A stretch of 64,000 nucleotides of DNA from Candidatus Omnitrophota bacterium (GCA_041661605.1 JBAZUE010000001.1:670928-734927), one strand, 5' to 3'; shown: positions 3,744 to 53,744, numbered from the stretch's first letter. Notes: generated from the sequence alone by a model not told the origin. Translations and numbers: made by a program.

Positions 3744-5825
3744 TTAACTGCTTTGTTCAGCCTGCTTTTTGCTTAAATTAATCCGGCCCAGCTCATCTAC
3801 TCCGATAACCTTGACCTTAAATTCATCGCCGACCTTGACCGCGTCCTCAACCTTCTTCACAAAAGTGCTGGACAATTCAGAAACATGCACCAGCCCTTCT
3901 TTACGCGGGGCTATTTCTACAAAAACTCCAAACGGCATAATGCGTTTTACCTTGCCGAAATAAATCTTGCCTACTTCCACATCATCAGTAATTGCCCTGA
4001 TCATTTTAATGGCGGCATCGGATTTACCCGCGTCGGTTGAACCGACCAAAACTGTACCGTCATCTTTTATATCAATACTGGCGCCTGTAGAGGCAATTAT
4101 AGCCTTGATGTTTTTGCCTCCCGGACCGATAAGTTCGCCGATTTTCTCGGTATTAATCTTTAAAACATCAATACGCGGGGCAAAACTGGAAAGCTCTTCT
4201 CTTGGGCTGTTTAACGCGGAGCTCATTTTATCCAGAATAAAGAATCTGGCCTCTTTGGACTGCGCCAGGCAATCCTTAAGCAGGTCTAAGCTGATCCCGT
4301 CAATTTTAAGATCCAGTTGCACGGCAGTAACTCCCTGCCTGGTCCCTGCGACTTTAAAATCCATATCGCCAAAATGATCCTCTAACCCGGCGATATCCGT
4401 CAAGATTGTCGCTTTATTGCCTTCTTTAACTAAACCTAAGGCAACTCCGCCTACGGCTTCTTTAATCGGTACTCCGGCATCCATTAAAGACAGGGTAGCA
4501 GCACACACAGAAGCCATGCTGCTTGAACCGTTGGATTCCAAAATCTCGGAAACTACTCTTATAGTATAAGGGAACTTTTCTTTTGACGGCATTACCGCAA
4601 GCAATGCCTTTTCCGCTAAAGCTCCATGGCCAATCTCACGCCTGCCGGGACTGCGCACAGGCCTTGTTTCTCCAACACTGAAAGAAGGAAAATTATAATG
4701 CAACATGAAAGATTTCTTTTTCTCGCCCTCCAACGACTCAATCAACTGCTCATCTTCACCTGTGCCTAAAGTAGTCACAGCTAAACTCTGAGTCTGGCCG
4801 CGGGTAAAAAGGCTTGAGCCATGTGTACGCGGAAGAACCGAAACCTCGCAGCTGATCGGACGGATCTCTTTAAAGGAACGGCCGTCAATGCGGATGTTTT
4901 CTTTAGAGATCATCTTACGCACCTGCTTTTTCTCTACTTCATGCAAACCGGTATGGATATCTTCCGCCAGGAAACCTTCAGCAGTTAATTGTAATTCCAA
5001 CTCCTTAGTCAAGAGAGCAACCTCTTCTTCGCGCTCTTCCTTTTTGCTTAATTTATATACTTTGGCTAATTTTTCCTGAGAAAGCGATTCAATTTTCTGC
5101 ATTAGAGCCGGATCAATTAATTTAAGCTCAACCTTTGCCTTCTCCGCGCCATAAAGCCGGCAGAATTCCTCCTGCATGCTGATTATAGGCTTTAAGCTCT
5201 CCACTCCGAATTTTACCGCCTCAAGATACACCTCCTCGGAAACCTCTTTAGCTTTTGATTCAAGCATGACTACGCCTTTGCTATTACCGGCTAAGACTAC
5301 CTCTAAATCTGAATCCGCAAGTTCCGCGAAAGTAGGATTTAAAACAAATTCATTATTTATCCTGGCTACCCGGCAACTGGCTAAAGGCCCATTAAAAGGA
5401 ATATCTGAAATTGATAAAGCCGCGCTTGCCCCGATCAAAGCCAGGACATTCGGATCATTCTCCCCGTCGCTTGAGAGAACAATCGCCATAACCTGAACTT
5501 CATTTAAGAATCCTTCGGGAAATAACGGCCGGATTGGACGGTCAATAAGACGGGATCCTAAAATTTCATTTTCTGAAGGCCTGCCTTCACGTTTAAAAAA
5601 TCCTCCGGGGATGCGGCCTGCGGCATAGGTTTTCTCCTGGTACTCTACAGTTAAAGGGAAGAAGTCCTGGCCTTCTCTTATTTCTCTGGACATACAGGCA
5701 GTGACCAAAATCACGGTTGCCCCGTAAGTAACAGTAACTGAACCATTAGCCTGCTTAGCGATCCTGCCGGTTTCCAGGATAAGATCATTTTTGCCAAATT
5801 TAATTTTCAAGCTTTTATTTTGCAT
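3744..5825 (-). CDS. pnp: Polyribonucleotide nucleotidyltransferase (PNPase)
   Basis: 693 aa; two RNase PH domains, KH (GPGGKNIKAI) and S1 (GKVKRIMPFGVFVEI) domains; follows rpsO as in the classical rpsO-pnp pair. Confidence 0.97.
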   Translation of the reverse strand: MQNKSLKIKFGKNDLILETGRIAKQANGSVTVTYGATVILVTACMSREIREGQDFFPLTVEYQEKTYAAGRIPGGFFKREGRPSENEILGSRLIDRPIRPLFPEGFLNEVQVMAIVLSSDGENDPNVLALIGASAALSISDIPFNGPLASCRVARINNEFVLNPTFAELADSDLEVVLAGNSKGVVMLESKAKEVSEEVYLEAVKFGVESLKPIISMQEEFCRLYGAEKAKVELKLIDPALMQKIESLSQEKLAKVYKLSKKEEREEEVALLTKELELQLTAEGFLAEDIHTGLHEVEKKQVRKMISKENIRIDGRSFKEIRPISCEVSVLPRTHGSSLFTRGQTQSLAVTTLGTGEDEQLIESLEGEKKKSFMLHYNFPSFSVGETRPVRSPGRREIGHGALAEKALLAVMPSKEKFPYTIRVVSEILESNGSSSMASVCAATLSLMDAGVPIKEAVGGVALGLVKEGNKATILTDIAGLEDHFGDMDFKVAGTRQGVTAVQLDLKIDGISLDLLKDCLAQSKEARFFILDKMSSALNSPREELSSFAPRIDVLKINTEKIGELIGPGGKNIKAIIASTGASIDIKDDGTVLVGSTDAGKSDAAIKMIRAITDDVEVGKIYFGKVKRIMPFGVFVEIAPRKEGLVHVSELSSTFVKKVEDAVKVGDEFKVKVIGVDELGRINLSKKQAEQSS

Positions 5826-6866: not shown

Positions 6867-7544
6867 TCAACCGGCTATCTCAGCATCAATCTTCTTGATT
6901 AAAACATCCAGCTCTTTAATCAAAGGCATAGGAAGCATTTTCAAAACCTCCGCTTCCTGTTTCAACATACGCAACTGGCCTAATATTCTTCTGGCAAGAG
7001 CCAGCTTCCTTTTCTCCTGCGCCTCCTCCGGATCCAGTTCCTGGCGCTGCCTGATAATTACACCAAGGTTCTTCTTTAGCTCCTGAGCGTCCCTGCCCTT
7101 TTCAAAAATCTCTTTTTTAAGGTTCTTGTAATCATCCTCATCCAATACTTTTTTATTCTTTGCCTGGCGCAGTATATCCACTGACTCATAACTGGGAATA
7201 TTGGCGGCCTGGCTTTCTTGCGCATAATCGCTTTTTAAATACTGAGGCTCTTCTTTTTCCAGGAAATAATACGACTTAAGCAGTTTCATTGCTGTCTGTT
7301 TACGTATGCCTATCTCGCGGCTGACATAGATGTCAAAATTGACGTACCCCCACTCTTTATACATCTTGTCTTTCCAGACTGAATAAAGAGAGCGGCCCAG
7401 CTCAATCCAGGAACTCTTAAAGTTCTTGGCGCTTTCTAAAATATGGTAGCGCAAAGATCCGCTATCCAGATTTTCCATTTTTTCTTCGATGTTCCTCAAT
7501 GATTTTGTTTTTTGCTCATCCATAATTTTACGGCTACTTTCCAA
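6867..7544 (-). CDS. Hypothetical protein (225 aa), charged/coiled-coil C-terminal half
   Basis: Long ORF in the operon context, 11-nt overlap with the upstream gene; no motif I recognise. Confidence 0.55.
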   Translation of the reverse strand: MESSRKIMDEQKTKSLRNIEEKMENLDSGSLRYHILESAKNFKSSWIELGRSLYSVWKDKMYKEWGYVNFDIYVSREIGIRKQTAMKLLKSYYFLEKEEPQYLKSDYAQESQAANIPSYESVDILRQAKNKKVLDEDDYKNLKKEIFEKGRDAQELKKNLGVIIRQRQELDPEEAQEKRKLALARRILGQLRMLKQEAEVLKMLPMPLIKELDVLIKKIDAEIAG

Positions 7545-47613: not shown

Positions 47614-49881
<2,268 letters not shown>

Positions 49882-49921
49882 TTTACCCTCCCAATCTAAT
49901 CTTATGCGGATCCTGTCGAGG

Positions 49922-50000
49922 CTTGTCTCTCGCAGCACCGCTTGCCTGCCGTCAGGCAGGCTTGCTCGCCCCAAGCGTGGCTCGCTGCGCTAAGAAGACA
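49922..50000. repeat. GC-rich imperfect palindromic element, copy a (79 nt)
   Basis: Termini CTTGTCTCTCGCAGC ... GCTGCGCTAAGAAGACA pair with each other; internal GCCTGCC-GTCA-GGCAGGC hairpin; left end matches the element at 50437 (CTTGTnTCTCGCAG). Confidence 0.6.
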
Positions 50001-50053
50001 CCCCGTTAGATTCTACCTTTCTTGGCGTCTATTATAATGGAAAGGAGAACAAA

Positions 50054-50404
50054 ATGAAAGAGCTAATACCCGAAGAATTAATAGGGCACAAGATATTCCT
50101 GCTAAGAAACCAAAAGGTTATGCTAAGCATCCACCTTGCAAAGCTTTACGGTGTTCAAGTAAAAGTCTTAATGCAGGCGGTAAAACGCAATAGCGAAAGA
50201 TTTCCTGAGGATTTTATGTTCCAGCTAACTCCAGGAGAAGCCCAATCTTCAAGGTCACAATTTGTGACCTTGAACAATAAGGATTTTAAACAAAGAAAGG
50301 TTTCTAAGCATGACGAAAATATCCGGAATATTTTTGAAGCCATACACCAACTTATGGCCCCGCCCGAAAAACTCAAACGCAGAATAGGATTTCATACGGA
50401 TTAA
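50054..50404 (+). CDS. ORF6N-domain protein (KilA-N-related, MGE-associated), apparently internally deleted
   Basis: N-terminus IFLLRNQKVMLSIHLAKLYGVQVKVLMQAVKRNSERFPEDFMFQL and C-terminus IFEAIHQLMAPPEKLKRRIGF match the family as I recall it. The usual ~60-70 aa between ...SQFVT and the C-terminal helix seem to be missing. Strong SD (GGAAAGGAG). Confidence 0.7.
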   Translation: MKELIPEELIGHKIFLLRNQKVMLSIHLAKLYGVQVKVLMQAVKRNSERFPEDFMFQLTPGEAQSSRSQFVTLNNKDFKQRKVSKHDENIRNIFEAIHQLMAPPEKLKRRIGFHTD

Positions 50405-50436
50405 CAACCAGCCAACTTGATATAATTACAAGCGTC

Positions 50437-50584
50437 TGTCTTGTCTTGTTTCTCGCAGGGACGCTCGTTTGCCCCGGCGTGGCAAACTTCGCTCGGGTTT
50501 CGCCTCGCTCTACCTACTTCGTATATAGCCGGGTATCCTTGCCCGCTCGGCCTGCAAACGCCCTGCTTAGAAACAAGCCAAGCC
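50437..50584. repeat. GC-rich imperfect palindromic element, copy b (148 nt), between convergent ORF6N and HNH genes
   Basis: GTCTTGTCTTGTTTCTCGCAGGG ... CCCTGCTTAGAAACAAGCCAAGCC (~20-bp closing stem); internal GTTTGCC-x7-GGCAAAC hairpin; shares end motifs with 49922-50000. Confidence 0.6.
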
Positions 50585-50615
50585 AGCCTCTATATGGGAA
50601 TTACACGTCCATTTA

Positions 50616-51674
50616 TTACAGTTCTAAAATCTTCTTACCCATAATAGGGAGATTTACTATCTCTTCAATAATCTTTTTTGTGTTCTCTTCTGAAAACTCC
50701 TCAAAACTTCTGTCTAAATAGTTAAATATAAGCCCATAATCTTTTTTAAAGTTTTTTTCTGTATCATTACTAAGCTTTATAATATGACCGCCTATAGGCA
50801 TACCCATTGCAAAAAGACCAAGAACTTTTTTATTAAACTCAAATGTTAGCATCCAAATACTACCAAGTTTGCCATTTAAGAAATCTGCAGATGGTTTGTC
50901 ACCTTTCCAAAGTAGGTGACCAGGTTCACCCTTACCATATCTTATAAAGTTTCGGATATCATCAAATATTGGAAGAAACCAGAAATTTGGTTCTTGAATT
51001 TTGTAAAATAATAAATTTAGCATAGTTTTAGAAATCGATCTCTCTATTGCACGCCAATTAATGTTTATTACTATTTTAGCGGCTTTACCTTTTGCCGTTT
51101 CGTCAAATAGCTCCCACACCACGCTATTAGATTCAGCCCATTCCCTTAAACCTTTTTCAAATAACCGCCATCCATGAATACTTATAGCTTTCGAATCGCA
51201 CCAAAAATAAAGTTTTTTTATCTTATTTTTATCAATTTCTTCATTCTTGAGCAAATCTTCAATATCTCCTTTAAAATTTTCATTATTATCTTTTATATAA
51301 TCACATCTGATTTCGGATCCATCATCAAAAATAAAAATAAACTGTGGATACCAAAATGTATCCTTATTAACTAAATACTCTTGAATTTGAGGATATCCAT
51401 CCTTTACGGTTAATAAAACCGGCTGACCATGTCCATTTTTTCCGAAAATTGGGACATCTCTTCTGCCTTTCATTGAAACCCACGACCTCAAGAAAGAAAA
51501 AGGACTATCTTTACCTTTAAAAACGCTCGTTTCAAATTCTTCACTAAAAGCATTATTGCAGCTAGAACAAACTGCATTTTTCAATACAATACTCCCCCCC
51601 AGTGCTTTTGGGATAACGTGTTCATCAGAAAAATTATTTGTGATCTTCTTACAGTAAATACATACTTTATTCAT
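50616..51674 (-). CDS. HNH endonuclease-domain protein (N-terminal HNH finger + ~300-aa uncharacterised C-terminal region)
   Basis: CIYC-x8-DEHVIPKALGG-x8-CSSCN at aa 5-40; the rest has no motif I recognise; AT-rich codon usage; AAGGA SD. Confidence 0.6.
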   Translation of the reverse strand: MNKVCIYCKKITNNFSDEHVIPKALGGSIVLKNAVCSSCNNAFSEEFETSVFKGKDSPFSFLRSWVSMKGRRDVPIFGKNGHGQPVLLTVKDGYPQIQEYLVNKDTFWYPQFIFIFDDGSEIRCDYIKDNNENFKGDIEDLLKNEEIDKNKIKKLYFWCDSKAISIHGWRLFEKGLREWAESNSVVWELFDETAKGKAAKIVININWRAIERSISKTMLNLLFYKIQEPNFWFLPIFDDIRNFIRYGKGEPGHLLWKGDKPSADFLNGKLGSIWMLTFEFNKKVLGLFAMGMPIGGHIIKLSNDTEKNFKKDYGLIFNYLDRSFEEFSEENTKKIIEEIVNLPIMGKKILEL

Positions 51675-51764
51675 ATCAAATCCTTACCTGCCGAATAAAC
51701 ATAGTTGTGGGCGTTTCCTATTAACTCCTATTTCTCAACACTTCCAAACAACATCTGCAAATCG

Positions 51765-52442
51765 TTAATTTCTATAATTTTCTAAGAACTTTACTTTAAT
51801 TTCACCGTAAGGTTCACCTTTTATCTTAAATTCCAATTTGTTTCTATTCTCTTGTAAAAAACCAAGTAATTCTTTTTGTGCCTCATCATAATTTCGAACA
51901 AAATATTCAATAAAATCATCTACGATGCCATAAGAGCCAACTTTAATAGTCCTGATTCCTGTATATTGCGTCTCTGGCTCTACTCGAAATTCTTTCTTAC
52001 TATCTTTAGCGGTAATTATAAGTATTGGTTTTGATACCTCGCCTTCGCCTCTATTTTTATTACGTAATATAAAATGGAGCTCAAATTCAACTGAACGCTG
52101 ATAAATATTTACTTCAGTATTTTTCTTCCTTTCTTGCTGAACCCAACAACCGAACCACTTTCCGAAGTATAAAGTAGTACCATCCAAAGTATATTTAGGT
52201 GGAGAAACAAAGAAGGTATAGATAATCCCCCAAATTAACAATGCGCTTGCTACAGCTACGCTAATTTTCGTAAGCATAATATTTGTTTCATGCCTTTCGA
52301 AATCGGTTATTTTCTTAATTAGTTGCGATTCTCCCTCTACAATATCTGGTGAGCTAAGACCCTCTTTATAAGCATAATTCCTAAGCTTATTAAGTTTCTG
52401 TTTCCAATCTTGAATTTGTAGAATTTCTTTTAATTTACCCAT
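51765..52442 (-). CDS. Hypothetical single-pass membrane protein (225 aa)
   Basis: One TM (ISVAVASALLIWGIIYTFFV, aa ~59-78); no recognisable motif; first gene of the AT-rich cassette. Confidence 0.5.
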   Translation of the reverse strand: MGKLKEILQIQDWKQKLNKLRNYAYKEGLSSPDIVEGESQLIKKITDFERHETNIMLTKISVAVASALLIWGIIYTFFVSPPKYTLDGTTLYFGKWFGCWVQQERKKNTEVNIYQRSVEFELHFILRNKNRGEGEVSKPILIITAKDSKKEFRVEPETQYTGIRTIKVGSYGIVDDFIEYFVRNYDEAQKELLGFLQENRNKLEFKIKGEPYGEIKVKFLENYRN

Positions 52443-52477
52443 AAAACCTTAGGATCGTTCCAAGCTATAATTTGATG

Positions 52478-52506
52478 ACATTAATAAATTAATCCATAGA
52501 TGGCAA
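52478..52506 (-). promoter_or_regulatory. Sigma70-like promoter of the TM/HNH cassette (TTGCCA-17-TAATGT)
   Basis: Minus strand: TTGCCA (52506-52501), 17-nt spacer, TAATGT (52483-52478), ~35 nt upstream of the ATG at 52442. The background is AT-rich, so a chance match is possible. Confidence 0.35.
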
Positions 52507-52531
52507 TCTTAGCTATAGATATTTTGCTTGA

Positions 52532-52681
52532 GGGATATTGGGGAGCGTGCATTAGAAAATTTTCGGTAGATGTGCGCAAGGATTTACGACGAACGAAGGA
52601 CCTCTCGAAAGCATGCGTAATCCGGGAGTGAGTCGTAAACCGTAGCGCACGGCGAAAATTTTCGCACGCGAACAATATCCC
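52532..52681. other. 150-nt rod-like element of five nested helices (candidate structured ncRNA, or foldback/MITE-like or operator DNA)
   Basis: Pairings 52532-40/52673-81, 52545-50/52664-69, 52555-65/52653-63, 52572-77/52645-50, 52580-90/52632-41; alternative pairing 52580-88 with 52616-23. Confidence 0.5.
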
Positions 52682-52709
52682 GAGAACAAAATATATATCA
52701 CAATTAGAG

Positions 52710-52741
52710 ATTGCTTCGTCCGCCTAAGGCGGACTCGCAAT
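52710..52741 (-). terminator. Hairpin immediately downstream of queA (terminator-like, no clear U-tract)
   Basis: ATTGC..GTCCGCC-TAA-GGCGGAC..GCAAT, 10 nt after the queA stop. Confidence 0.4.
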
Positions 52742-52751
52742 GACTATAACC

Positions 52752-53744
52752 CTAAATAATTAACATTGCGTCGCCGTAACTGTAAAACCTGTATTTCTTT
52801 TCCACCGCTTCCTGATACGCCTGCTTCATCAACTTCTCCCCGCCGAAAGCGCAGACCAGCATAAAAAGCGTGGTCATCGGCAAGTGAAAATTAGTCAACA
52901 GGCAATCGGCTAATTTAAATTTATAACCCGGATATATAAATAAATCCGTATTGCCCTCTTTACGGCCCTCGGCATATGTTTCCAGCGTCCTTAAGGCAGT
53001 TGTGCCGACAGCAATAATCCTGCCTTTATCGGCTTTAGCCTGTTTAAGCTTGGTGATAGTTTCATCCGGTACCGAAAAATACTCCGGCTCCATCTTATGC
53101 TCAAGGATATTTTCACATCTTACCGGCCGGAATGTTCCTAAGCCAACATGCAAAGTTATATAAGCCAGCTGGATTCCTTTAGCAGGCAGATCCACAAGCA
53201 TTCTTTCCGTAAAATGCAGCCCGGCAGTCGGTGAAGCAAGAGCGCCTTCATTCTTTGCGTAAACCGTCTGGTAATAAACCTTATCTGAATCAATAGGCTC
53301 ACGTTTTATATAAGGCGGCAAAGGCACAACACCGTAATCGTAAATTATATCCGCGTCTGGCTGCTTAAAACTAATCTGGCCCCTGGCACTTAAATGCCCG
53401 GAAATTTTTCCTCCGGCGAAAATAATCTTCTCGCCGACTTTCGTGCGGCTTGGCTGAACCAGGCAGGAAAATGTTGAGCCGTTTATGCGCCGGGTAAGCA
53501 GAATCTCAACCTTGCCTCCGGTTGTTTTATTCCCCATTAAACGGCAATGCAAAACTTTGGTATCGTTAAGGACTAATAAATCTTTTTCCCTAAAAAAACC
53601 ACCCATGTCTTTAAATACGCCATGAGTAATCTTGCAGGCTTGCCTGTCTACAATCAAGAGCCTGGCCTCTTCTCTATTTTCCAGAGGATGCTGAGCGATT
53701 AGCTCTTTAGGAAGCGGATAATCAAATTCAGAAAGTTTAAGCAT
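52752..53744 (-). CDS. queA: S-adenosylmethionine:tRNA ribosyltransferase-isomerase
   Basis: MLKLSEFDYPLPKELIAQHP..., SPTAGLHFT, VGTT..RTLE motifs. Confidence 0.95.
   Translation of the reverse strand: MLKLSEFDYPLPKELIAQHPLENREEARLLIVDRQACKITHGVFKDMGGFFREKDLLVLNDTKVLHCRLMGNKTTGGKVEILLTRRINGSTFSCLVQPSRTKVGEKIIFAGGKISGHLSARGQISFKQPDADIIYDYGVVPLPPYIKREPIDSDKVYYQTVYAKNEGALASPTAGLHFTERMLVDLPAKGIQLAYITLHVGLGTFRPVRCENILEHKMEPEYFSVPDETITKLKQAKADKGRIIAVGTTALRTLETYAEGRKEGNTDLFIYPGYKFKLADCLLTNFHLPMTTLFMLVCAFGGEKLMKQAYQEAVEKKYRFYSYGDAMLII

Follow-up and report, generated by a model that had tools for sequence, protein, structure and literature searches.

ERIC sequences (IRU) of Enterobacteria are imperfect palindromes of about 127 bp that lie in transcribed intergenic regions. 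The window analyzed in the current study, i.e., the whole stretch of 64,000 nucleotides from a Candidatus Omnitrophota bacterium, contains a long foldback between queA and a TM/HNH gene cassette, and in kind this rod joins the known palindromic intergenic repeats. Like ERIC, the whole rod is an imperfect palindrome that forms one long hairpin, is intergenic and probably co-transcribed, is conserved in sequence across species, and occurs in longer versions, the additional sequence being inserted at constant internal positions (behind GCACAC and in the apical part). Unlike ERIC, it has an unrelated sequence and belongs to another phylum, and it shows a strong sense bias, abutment on stop codons, and a partner element, fam2.

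With MITEs, e.g., Correia elements, bcr1, and RUP, the rod shares a small size, terminal inverted repeats, many dispersed copies, the existence of subfamilies and of nested or truncated copies, a greater likeness of copies within a genome than between genomes, and pairs that can flank genes as composite elements do. In contrast to MITEs, no parent insertion sequence was found, many rod positions are common to different species, and the copies are about 84% rather than nearly 100% identical. A foldback or MITE-like DNA repeat, recognizable by many dispersed near-identical copies with target-site duplications, had been the fallback reading of the first-pass annotation, and it came closest to the truth: many dispersed copies exist, but target-site duplications were not seen around them.

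Hairpins are also formed by REP/REPIN-RAYT systems, in which short REP units of 20 to 40 nt make up inverted doublets that flank a RAYT gene, and by PATE, which derive from IS200/IS605 and have subterminal hairpins on one strand, a fixed 5' target of 4 to 5 nt, no duplication, and TnpA in the same genome (e.g., ISDra2). Rods are likewise hairpin forming, extragenic, long-lived at orthologous sites, and free of target-site duplications; their Watson-Crick hairpins are consistent with recognition of single-stranded DNA, their orientation bias could follow replication, and a TTGAT pentanucleotide marks their 5' flank. This TTGAT-like flank and the lack of duplication are compatible with a PATE-type element, but TnpA was not found in the flanks. 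The rod differs from REP/REPIN in being a single long imperfect palindrome without a repeated short REP unit or a GTAG-type motif, and from both REP/REPIN and PATE in its length of about 175 nt with conserved internal loops and in having no Y1/HUH transposase in its flanks.

Integron attC sites and chromosomal VCR-type repeats resemble the rods in that they are imperfect palindromes in which the bulges are conserved and the apex varies, and in that they lie in fixed orientation right after or overlapping a stop codon, beside variable, promoter-poor accessory genes. Unlike attC sites, rods are solitary or occur in inverted rather than direct pairs, form no arrays, have no IntI nearby, and follow housekeeping genes with the cargo after, not before, the rod. 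The attC core (RYYYAAC/GTTRRRY) was absent from the rods upon inspection of both strands and of the alignments, and the ORF list of the window shows no integrase near the rod. Finally, the MIRU-type repeats of mycobacteria and the intercistronic RNase III hairpins of phage T7 are comparable as families of similar hairpins that punctuate polycistronic units, oriented between codirectional genes and touching stop and start codons. However, MIRUs are tandem direct repeats that encode small ORFs, and T7 RNase III sites are much shorter and phage borne.

The queA locus and its variable cargo bay

The features of the locus are given below, read along the minus strand.

52752..53744, minus strand: queA (Pfam Queuosine_synth, E 5.6e-124; the order queA-rod also occurs in loci L035 and L038)
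52714..52740, minus strand: short GC hairpin (GTCCGCC-TTAG-GGCGGAC) that separates the rod from the queA stop codon
52515..52698, minus strand: rod, a copy of the dispersed Omnitrophota foldback repeat (folds, extended inverted repeat, covariance model R1)
50595..52500, minus strand: low-GC cargo (0.32) between rod and fam2 (ORFs, GC content, homology break)
51765-52442, minus strand: TM protein, 225 aa (ORF)
50616-51674, minus strand: HNH_5 protein (Pfam HNH_5)
50421..50605, minus strand: fam2, a second conserved foldback and separate repeat family (BLAST, nhmmer, fold)
48285..50404, no single strand: far side of the variable bay (ORFs, Pfam, comparison with L035)
50054-50404, plus strand: truncated ORF6N gene, 116 aa
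49405-49974, minus strand: flavodoxin-like gene
48285-49397, minus strand: tgt

All five helices described in the first-pass annotation were recovered in place, with a core of 52532-52681, and the pairing of the outer helix reaches beyond this core to 52515-52698. The outer helices, GATATTTTGC...GCAAAATATC, represent terminal inverted repeats, and the palindrome runs through the whole length. The fold is real on both strands, with z values of about -7: none of 200 dinucleotide shuffles was as good as the natural sequence on the plus strand (-63.5 kcal/mol, z -6.7) or on the minus strand (-58.5 kcal/mol, z -7.65), and in a GC-corrected scan of the 64 kb in 180-nt windows the rod was the top structured outlier on the plus strand. 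Its GC content of 0.50 exceeds that of the surrounding islet (0.32), as had been noticed before, and that of the 64-kb window (0.43). The window rod was aligned with 41 and, separately, with 25 other copies. Covariance model R1 scored it with 183.6 bits on the minus strand (52519-52693) and with 56.2 bits on the plus strand, and this asymmetry gives the rod a defined orientation in which the minus strand corresponds to the queA sense.

The impression that the rod represents no known RNA family was borne out by Rfam scans, which revealed no family at gathering score across the 64 kb, SNORD45 alone at E <= 10 within 52300-52900 (E 7.5, chance level), and no match for the rods of 18 related loci; 6S RNA, the HEARO/IscB omega RNA, and riboswitches are among the families thus covered. 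Neither sigma-70-like promoters nor intrinsic terminators were called at 52380-52800, and hand-picked -35/-10 candidates inside the rod were discarded for their poor -10 boxes. The test for Rho-independent terminators (GC-rich hairpin plus U tract) was negative in this interval, including the short GC hairpin at 52714..52740, and the 3' flank of the rod family is A rich on both strands (GCAAAATAT). The GC hairpin itself is missing in L035 and L038, where the rod directly adjoins the queA stop codon. No second rod copy was found within the 64-kb window; a weak match at 1283-1310 lies inside coding sequence and was rejected as a chance hit.

BLAST homology to L035 and L038 spans queA, which is 88% identical between L035 and the window, as well as the rod, and it ends at window positions 52500 and 52519. 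Homology with L035 returns at 50594-50432 (95% identity) and then runs through tgt, which in L035 follows directly after fam2. The genes behind queA and the rod are those for the TM and HNH_5 proteins in the window, a 456-aa ORF in L035, and a gene for a DUF2971 protein in L038. Since the relatives keep queA and the rod while the genes behind them differ, the rod belongs to the 3' end of queA, and the TM and HNH genes are cargo. It is thus firmly shown that the rod is tied to queA and not, as previously proposed, to the TM/HNH cassette, and that a variable cargo bay extends between the rod and the second conserved foldback, fam2. A general co-localization of rods with TM homologues was not observed either: five of six TM loci elsewhere are without a rod upstream, with L003 as the exception.

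The TM protein has seven homologues alone in 5.8 billion clusters and no PADLOC match. Its partners vary, i.e., HNH_5 in the window, HNH plus DUF3800 in L005, SIR2_2 in L006, and a 1,346-aa DUF8371 protein in L003, and TM plus partner looks like a small modular defense-type pair. On the far side of the bay, the ORF6N/KilA-N-type gene (50054-50404) matches the PADLOC candidate system PDC-S05 and seems truncated in view of the 176 aa of a homologue, which in L057 is itself rod-fam2 cargo.

A dispersed, orientation-locked repeat family

The search for further copies, envisaged in the first-pass annotation, was rewarding. In L003, a locus with a TM homologue, a longer GC-rich foldback was found whose two arms both align with the rod, and do so in a single orientation only. 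A 20-base pattern drawn from the 3' arm common to the window rod and the L003 foldback gave 51 matches in 50 loci of a species-representative genome collection (about one expected by chance), with up to six rod loci in a single MAG under this strict pattern, and an independent pattern from the 5' half was present in at least 120 metagenome stretches. Altogether, nhmmer detected 167 rod copies in 1.05 Mb of loci. Covariance model R1, built from 26 copies, scored 110 to 190 bits on one strand and 15 to 57 bits on the other. Both patterns had zero matches among 2.9 million viral contigs, BLAST of the rod against phage and plasmid records gave no match, and no Omnitrophota repeat of this kind was found in Rfam 15 or in the full-text literature searched. 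It is firmly shown that the rod belongs to a dispersed, structured, and orientation-locked intergenic repeat family, which is confined to Omnitrophota-type genomes as far as sampled.

With respect to taxonomy, 39 of the 50 loci are labeled Omnitrophota or Omnitrophica, one is labeled "bacterium," and the remaining 10 derive from TPA MAGs labeled "uncultured Planctomycetales" (L009, L019, L026, L033, L038, L039, L040, L043, L052, and L056). The gene order of L019, L033, L038, and L039 is common to Omnitrophota loci, and L038 is about 81% identical to the window at the DNA level; the Planctomycetales names of these rod-bearing MAGs are probably wrong.

The rods are intergenic copies with a preferred strand. 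The upstream gene lies on the same strand as the rod in 36 versus 7 cases of the genome set and in 39 versus 17 cases of the metagenome set, and the same is true for the downstream gene (36 versus 6 and 41 versus 11, respectively); in codirectional gaps of all loci, 70 rods are sense and 12 antisense (85% sense). Since 88% of the genes at rod loci are codirectional, the orientation bias could follow replication instead of transcription. An apparent depletion of rods from convergent gaps rested on a generic 70:15:15 background and was dismissed, as the rods follow the real 88% codirectional arrangement. The rod begins with TTGATATTTTG (including TAA and TAG variants), is preceded by the conserved TTGAT, and often supplies or adjoins the stop codon of the upstream gene: its 5' end lies at -14 to +11 nt from the upstream stop in 20 of 35 cases and, in a separate count, at -13 to +2 nt in 17 of 39 cases. 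The TGaTATATA formerly taken for an extended -10 box of a minus-strand promoter overlies this conserved 5' terminus, and no promoter was called there.

A tRNA-rod-tRNA-tRNA cluster with the rod on the tRNA strand is present in five species (L014, L015, L018, L051, and L053), and in L045 (1291-2418) the rod stands on the RNA-gene strand at the end of a 23S-5S-tRNA-rod series. Where a rod shares its strand with a surrounding tRNA cluster or a preceding rRNA operon, it is very probably transcribed, and the gene order thus makes co-transcription of rods with their neighbors likely, at least at tRNA and rRNA loci. A putative P4 element of RNase P RNA behind the rod in the five tRNA-bearing loci turned out to be tRNA in the Rfam scan.

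Rods usually measure 165 to 215 nt (about 175 nt), with variants of 270 to 330 nt. Conservation across species is almost complete in the two arms, in several bulges, and in the internal loops, the apical part is variable, with a TTACG motif in 66 of 118 copies, and extra small hairpins are inserted at a fixed site after GCACAC. In the alignment of 26 sequences (A2), 91.6% of the stem cells are paired and 18 pairs show double changes; none of 500 shuffles scored as high, and slid controls reached 35 to 52% pairing. The covariation check proposed earlier was extended to 60 independent metagenome copies that had no role in the model, and these were 92.2% paired, with double changes in 29 of 47 pairs (373 cells) and up to four pair types per stem position. 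The alignment of these copies was fitted to the model and is thus biased toward the structure, yet the controls lie far below these figures. Compensatory changes maintain the long imperfect palindrome.

With one ambiguous position set aside, the stem cells comprise 2,511 Watson-Crick, 28 G-U, and 42 A-C combinations, and an attempt to assign the strand from the last two counts was indecisive. The strand antisense to the genes is the better folder in 42 of 46 copies; on the sense strand, the mismatches are of the pyrimidine-pyrimidine type, which accounts for this difference. The rarity of G-U pairs and the better antisense folding speak against a simple RNA-level selection.

Possible mobility and the partner foldback fam2

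Rod positions after the genes for an amidohydrolase, an SPFH protein, CysS, QueA, and TopA are common to several species. At the amidohydrolase locus, rod identity is 0.74 to 0.94, compared with 0.48 to 0.65 for third codon positions and about 0.6 for the flanks. At the same time, rods at unrelated loci of one genome can be 96 to 98% identical, identity is higher within a genome than between genomes (0.883 versus 0.839, P = 9e-12), and the nearest relative of 19 of 36 copies is a paralog from the same genome. This within-genome similarity speaks for recent spread or gene conversion. Some copies are truncated, nested, or inverted. Consistent target-site duplications were found neither at 76 junction pairs nor around the cargo; in old copies, such duplications may have vanished. 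The TATAG that flanks the cargo on either side, in the window as well as in L035, is no duplication, since it reflects the usual flank motifs of rod and fam2 and is also present in the tandem of L136, and an "empty site" in L141 proved to be an ORF-calling artifact, with the ORF spanning the rod. Among 1,044 flank ORFs (about 1 Mb), there was no recurring transposase-like family, ten representative ORF clusters resembled housekeeping genes when inspected by eye, and integrase, transposase, or HUH genes were not found in the rod flanks.

Where two rods lie close together, they are always in inverted arrangement ("-> cargo <-"), with one or two small genes or, in L013, nothing in between; the pairs are listed below.

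L003, 1496-1768 (plus) and 6885-7217 (minus): inverted rod pair
L010, 1060-1235 and 1952-2139: inverted rod pair
L022, 1956-2146 and 2627-2818: inverted rod pair
L025, 121-318 and 1348-1523: inverted rod pair
L065, 5554-5729 and 6930-7119: inverted rod pair
L013, 5210-5404 and 5514-5702: inverted rod pair with nothing in between

In MAG nzgw297, the right-hand inverted rods form a subtype of their own (0.96 identity). Fragments of a second rod were observed right behind a complete rod in L042 (1548-1600) and alone in L012 (3015-3067). The near-identical loci L042 and L047 differ in that their gene order breaks exactly at the rod, and rods coincide with rearrangement points.

The partner element fam2 is about 165 nt long with a GC content of 58%. 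The window copy is 95% identical to that of L035 (3925-4092, with the BLAST alignment covering 3926-4089), compared with 79 to 83% for the flanking genes, and further copies are present in L136 (7692-7856) and at about 45 other places. It is not a diverged rod, as R1 gives 7.5 bits (E 0.8), and it has no Rfam match; its predicted multistem fold shows compensatory changes in 25 of 35 pairs. In the fetched loci, nhmmer revealed 49 fam2 hits, 38 of which follow a codirectional rod. In about 20 of these 38 cases, the gap of 3 to 61 nt makes rod and fam2 a tandem, and in about 18 it amounts to 0.4 to 2.1 kb and is filled with ORFs of low GC content (0.29 to 0.36), the domains of which include TIR_2, DUF2971, DUF3800, ORF6N, and HNH_5. 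In 18 of 29 cases, 11 to 50 nt separate the 3' end of fam2 from the start codon that comes next. Rod-fam2 spacers and cargo junctions are neither conserved nor precise. At the TopA locus, an uninterrupted TopA-rod-fam2-XerC module is present in L136, and a gene for a XerC-type recombinase stands behind rod-fam2 in both L136 and L046; it reads as housekeeping XerC and not as an integron integrase.

Competing explanations and use of the repeats

We consider it moderately probable that the rod, the family member next to queA, is a dispersed foldback repeat of the MITE/REPIN/ERIC kind that is co-transcribed with queA and has a role of the following sort. The repeat would spread or be homogenized via a hairpin DNA intermediate or gene conversion, which would explain the strict Watson-Crick pairing as well as the within-genome similarity. 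Transcribed together with the upstream gene, the rod could provide the message with a stable, cis-acting RNA hairpin at its 3' end, e.g., as a barrier, processing site, or insulator, and the stretch behind it might consequently be a tolerated or safe landing place for foreign genes, without any specific regulation of the HNH cassette by the rod. Against this explanation speak the missing target-site duplications and precise junctions, the lack of a recurring transposase family in about 1 Mb of flanks, the rarity of G-U pairs, the better folding of the antisense strand, and an orientation bias that could follow replication; in addition, many rod positions are conserved between species, which would not normally be expected of MITEs that are still active.

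A cassette-type mobile system, with ends or recombination sites formed by the rod on one side and by fam2 or another, inverted rod on the other, appears rather unlikely. The rod would then be the left end, the HNH and TM genes captured cargo, and the cargo-less rod-fam2 tandems empty or MITE-like derivatives mobilized in trans. Such a system would fit the position of the low-GC cargo exactly between rod and fam2 at about 18 loci, the different cargo genes of related genomes at one locus, the invariable inversion of close rod pairs, and the separate subtype of right-hand rods in nzgw297; strict Watson-Crick pairing would suit the recognition of a folded DNA strand, and the absence of duplications together with the TTGAT flank resembles IS200/IS605-type insertion. 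The imprecise spacers and junctions, the lack of integrase, transposase, and HUH genes in the flanks, the persistence of rods at the same housekeeping positions across many species, TM homologues without rods, and the absence of attC core motifs upon inspection argue against it, as do the 127 of 167 rods without a detected downstream fam2, although many of the contigs are short. Distinctly improbable is the more far-reaching proposal that rod and fam2 constitute a phylum-wide "docking module" after housekeeping genes that captures and exchanges small defense genes via a putative recombinase, which would recognize the folded DNA (or RNA); if true, this would amount to a cassette system similar to integrons, the structured sites of which would be its own and unrelated. 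It is also unlikely that the rod is a dedicated, nonmobile structured RNA with a specific conserved function at fixed loci in every genome, such as a protein-bound intercistronic processing or stability signal or a small RNA from polycistronic or tRNA precursors. Unpaired nucleotides and bulges that are invariant across species, the strand asymmetry of the covariance model, the positions kept after the SPFH, amidohydrolase, CysS, queA, and TopA genes, in tRNA clusters, and at an rRNA operon, a conservation far above that of neutral sites, and the sense orientation with stop-codon abutment would all suit such an RNA, but G-U pairs are not enriched, single-sided changes are rare, the antisense strand is the better folder, Rfam has no match, copies at unrelated loci of one genome are homogenized (up to 98% identity), and some copies are truncated, nested, or inverted.

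The reading put forward in the first-pass annotation, namely, control of the TM/HNH cassette by paired operators or by a cis-regulatory RNA with switch-like behavior, is essentially excluded. The rod does lie 72 nt upstream of the TM start codon, CGTAATCC is present at 52616-23 in the apical region and allows the alternative 8-bp pairing in the window copy, and a longer second copy precedes the cassette with the TM homologue in L003. The alternative helix indeed forms once the 5' arm of helix 5 is prevented from pairing, but this costs 10 kcal/mol; across 116 copies, the mean cost of 9.2 kcal/mol is no lower than with shuffled apical sequence (9.0 kcal/mol), and on the other strand the natural apical sequence is worse than the shuffled one. 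A short competing apical pairing is thus possible, but nothing points to a designed switch. As for the operators, the palindrome GAAAATTTTC was found in each helix-3 arm of the window rod, but it is lost in one third to one half of the copies, in which helix 3 is GAAATTTTTC/GAAAAATTTC; helix-3 pair 44/155 is AU in 19 and UA in 7 sequences of A2, and pair 42/294 is AU in 34 and UA in 25 metagenome copies. This variant breaks the palindrome within the arms and keeps the pairing between them, and within-arm palindromes are therefore not the conserved feature. Moreover, in relatives the same rod precedes unrelated genes, elsewhere its copies adjoin dozens of further unrelated genes, five of six TM-homologue loci are without a rod, and the AT-rich region upstream of the cassette lies downstream of the rod.

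For the preferred dispersed foldback repeat, the unusual traits are its deep conservation, strict orientation, abutment on stop codons, strict Watson-Crick pairing, partner element, and cargo bay. Owing to this combination, metatranscriptomes and complete genomes that already exist can be used to ask whether the repeat functions as RNA or is a replicator at the DNA level. The Omnitrophota are uncultivated, and no conserved noncoding element of theirs was found in Rfam and the full-text literature searched. Rod and fam2 are compact markers for the annotation of intergenic regions in Omnitrophota MAGs; they account for GC-rich "ORFs" and assembly breakpoints and mark the lodging places of accessory or defense-like genes (TIR, HNH, DUF2971, and DUF3800).

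Several genomes contain a short GC hairpin, CCTGCCTGCCGGCAGGCAGG, at times in the fixed variable site of the rod. This hairpin may be a third small repeat; it was observed in L003 (about 1695-1720), in L008 (55-80), and within the rods of L028 and L037. A related GC-rich sequence precedes the flavodoxin gene of the window (compare 49950-49990). The 189-aa flavodoxin-like ORF (49405-49974, minus strand) begins at a TTG in GC-rich, probably noncoding sequence, and a downstream ATG, resulting in a protein of about 159 aa, is more likely the true start.
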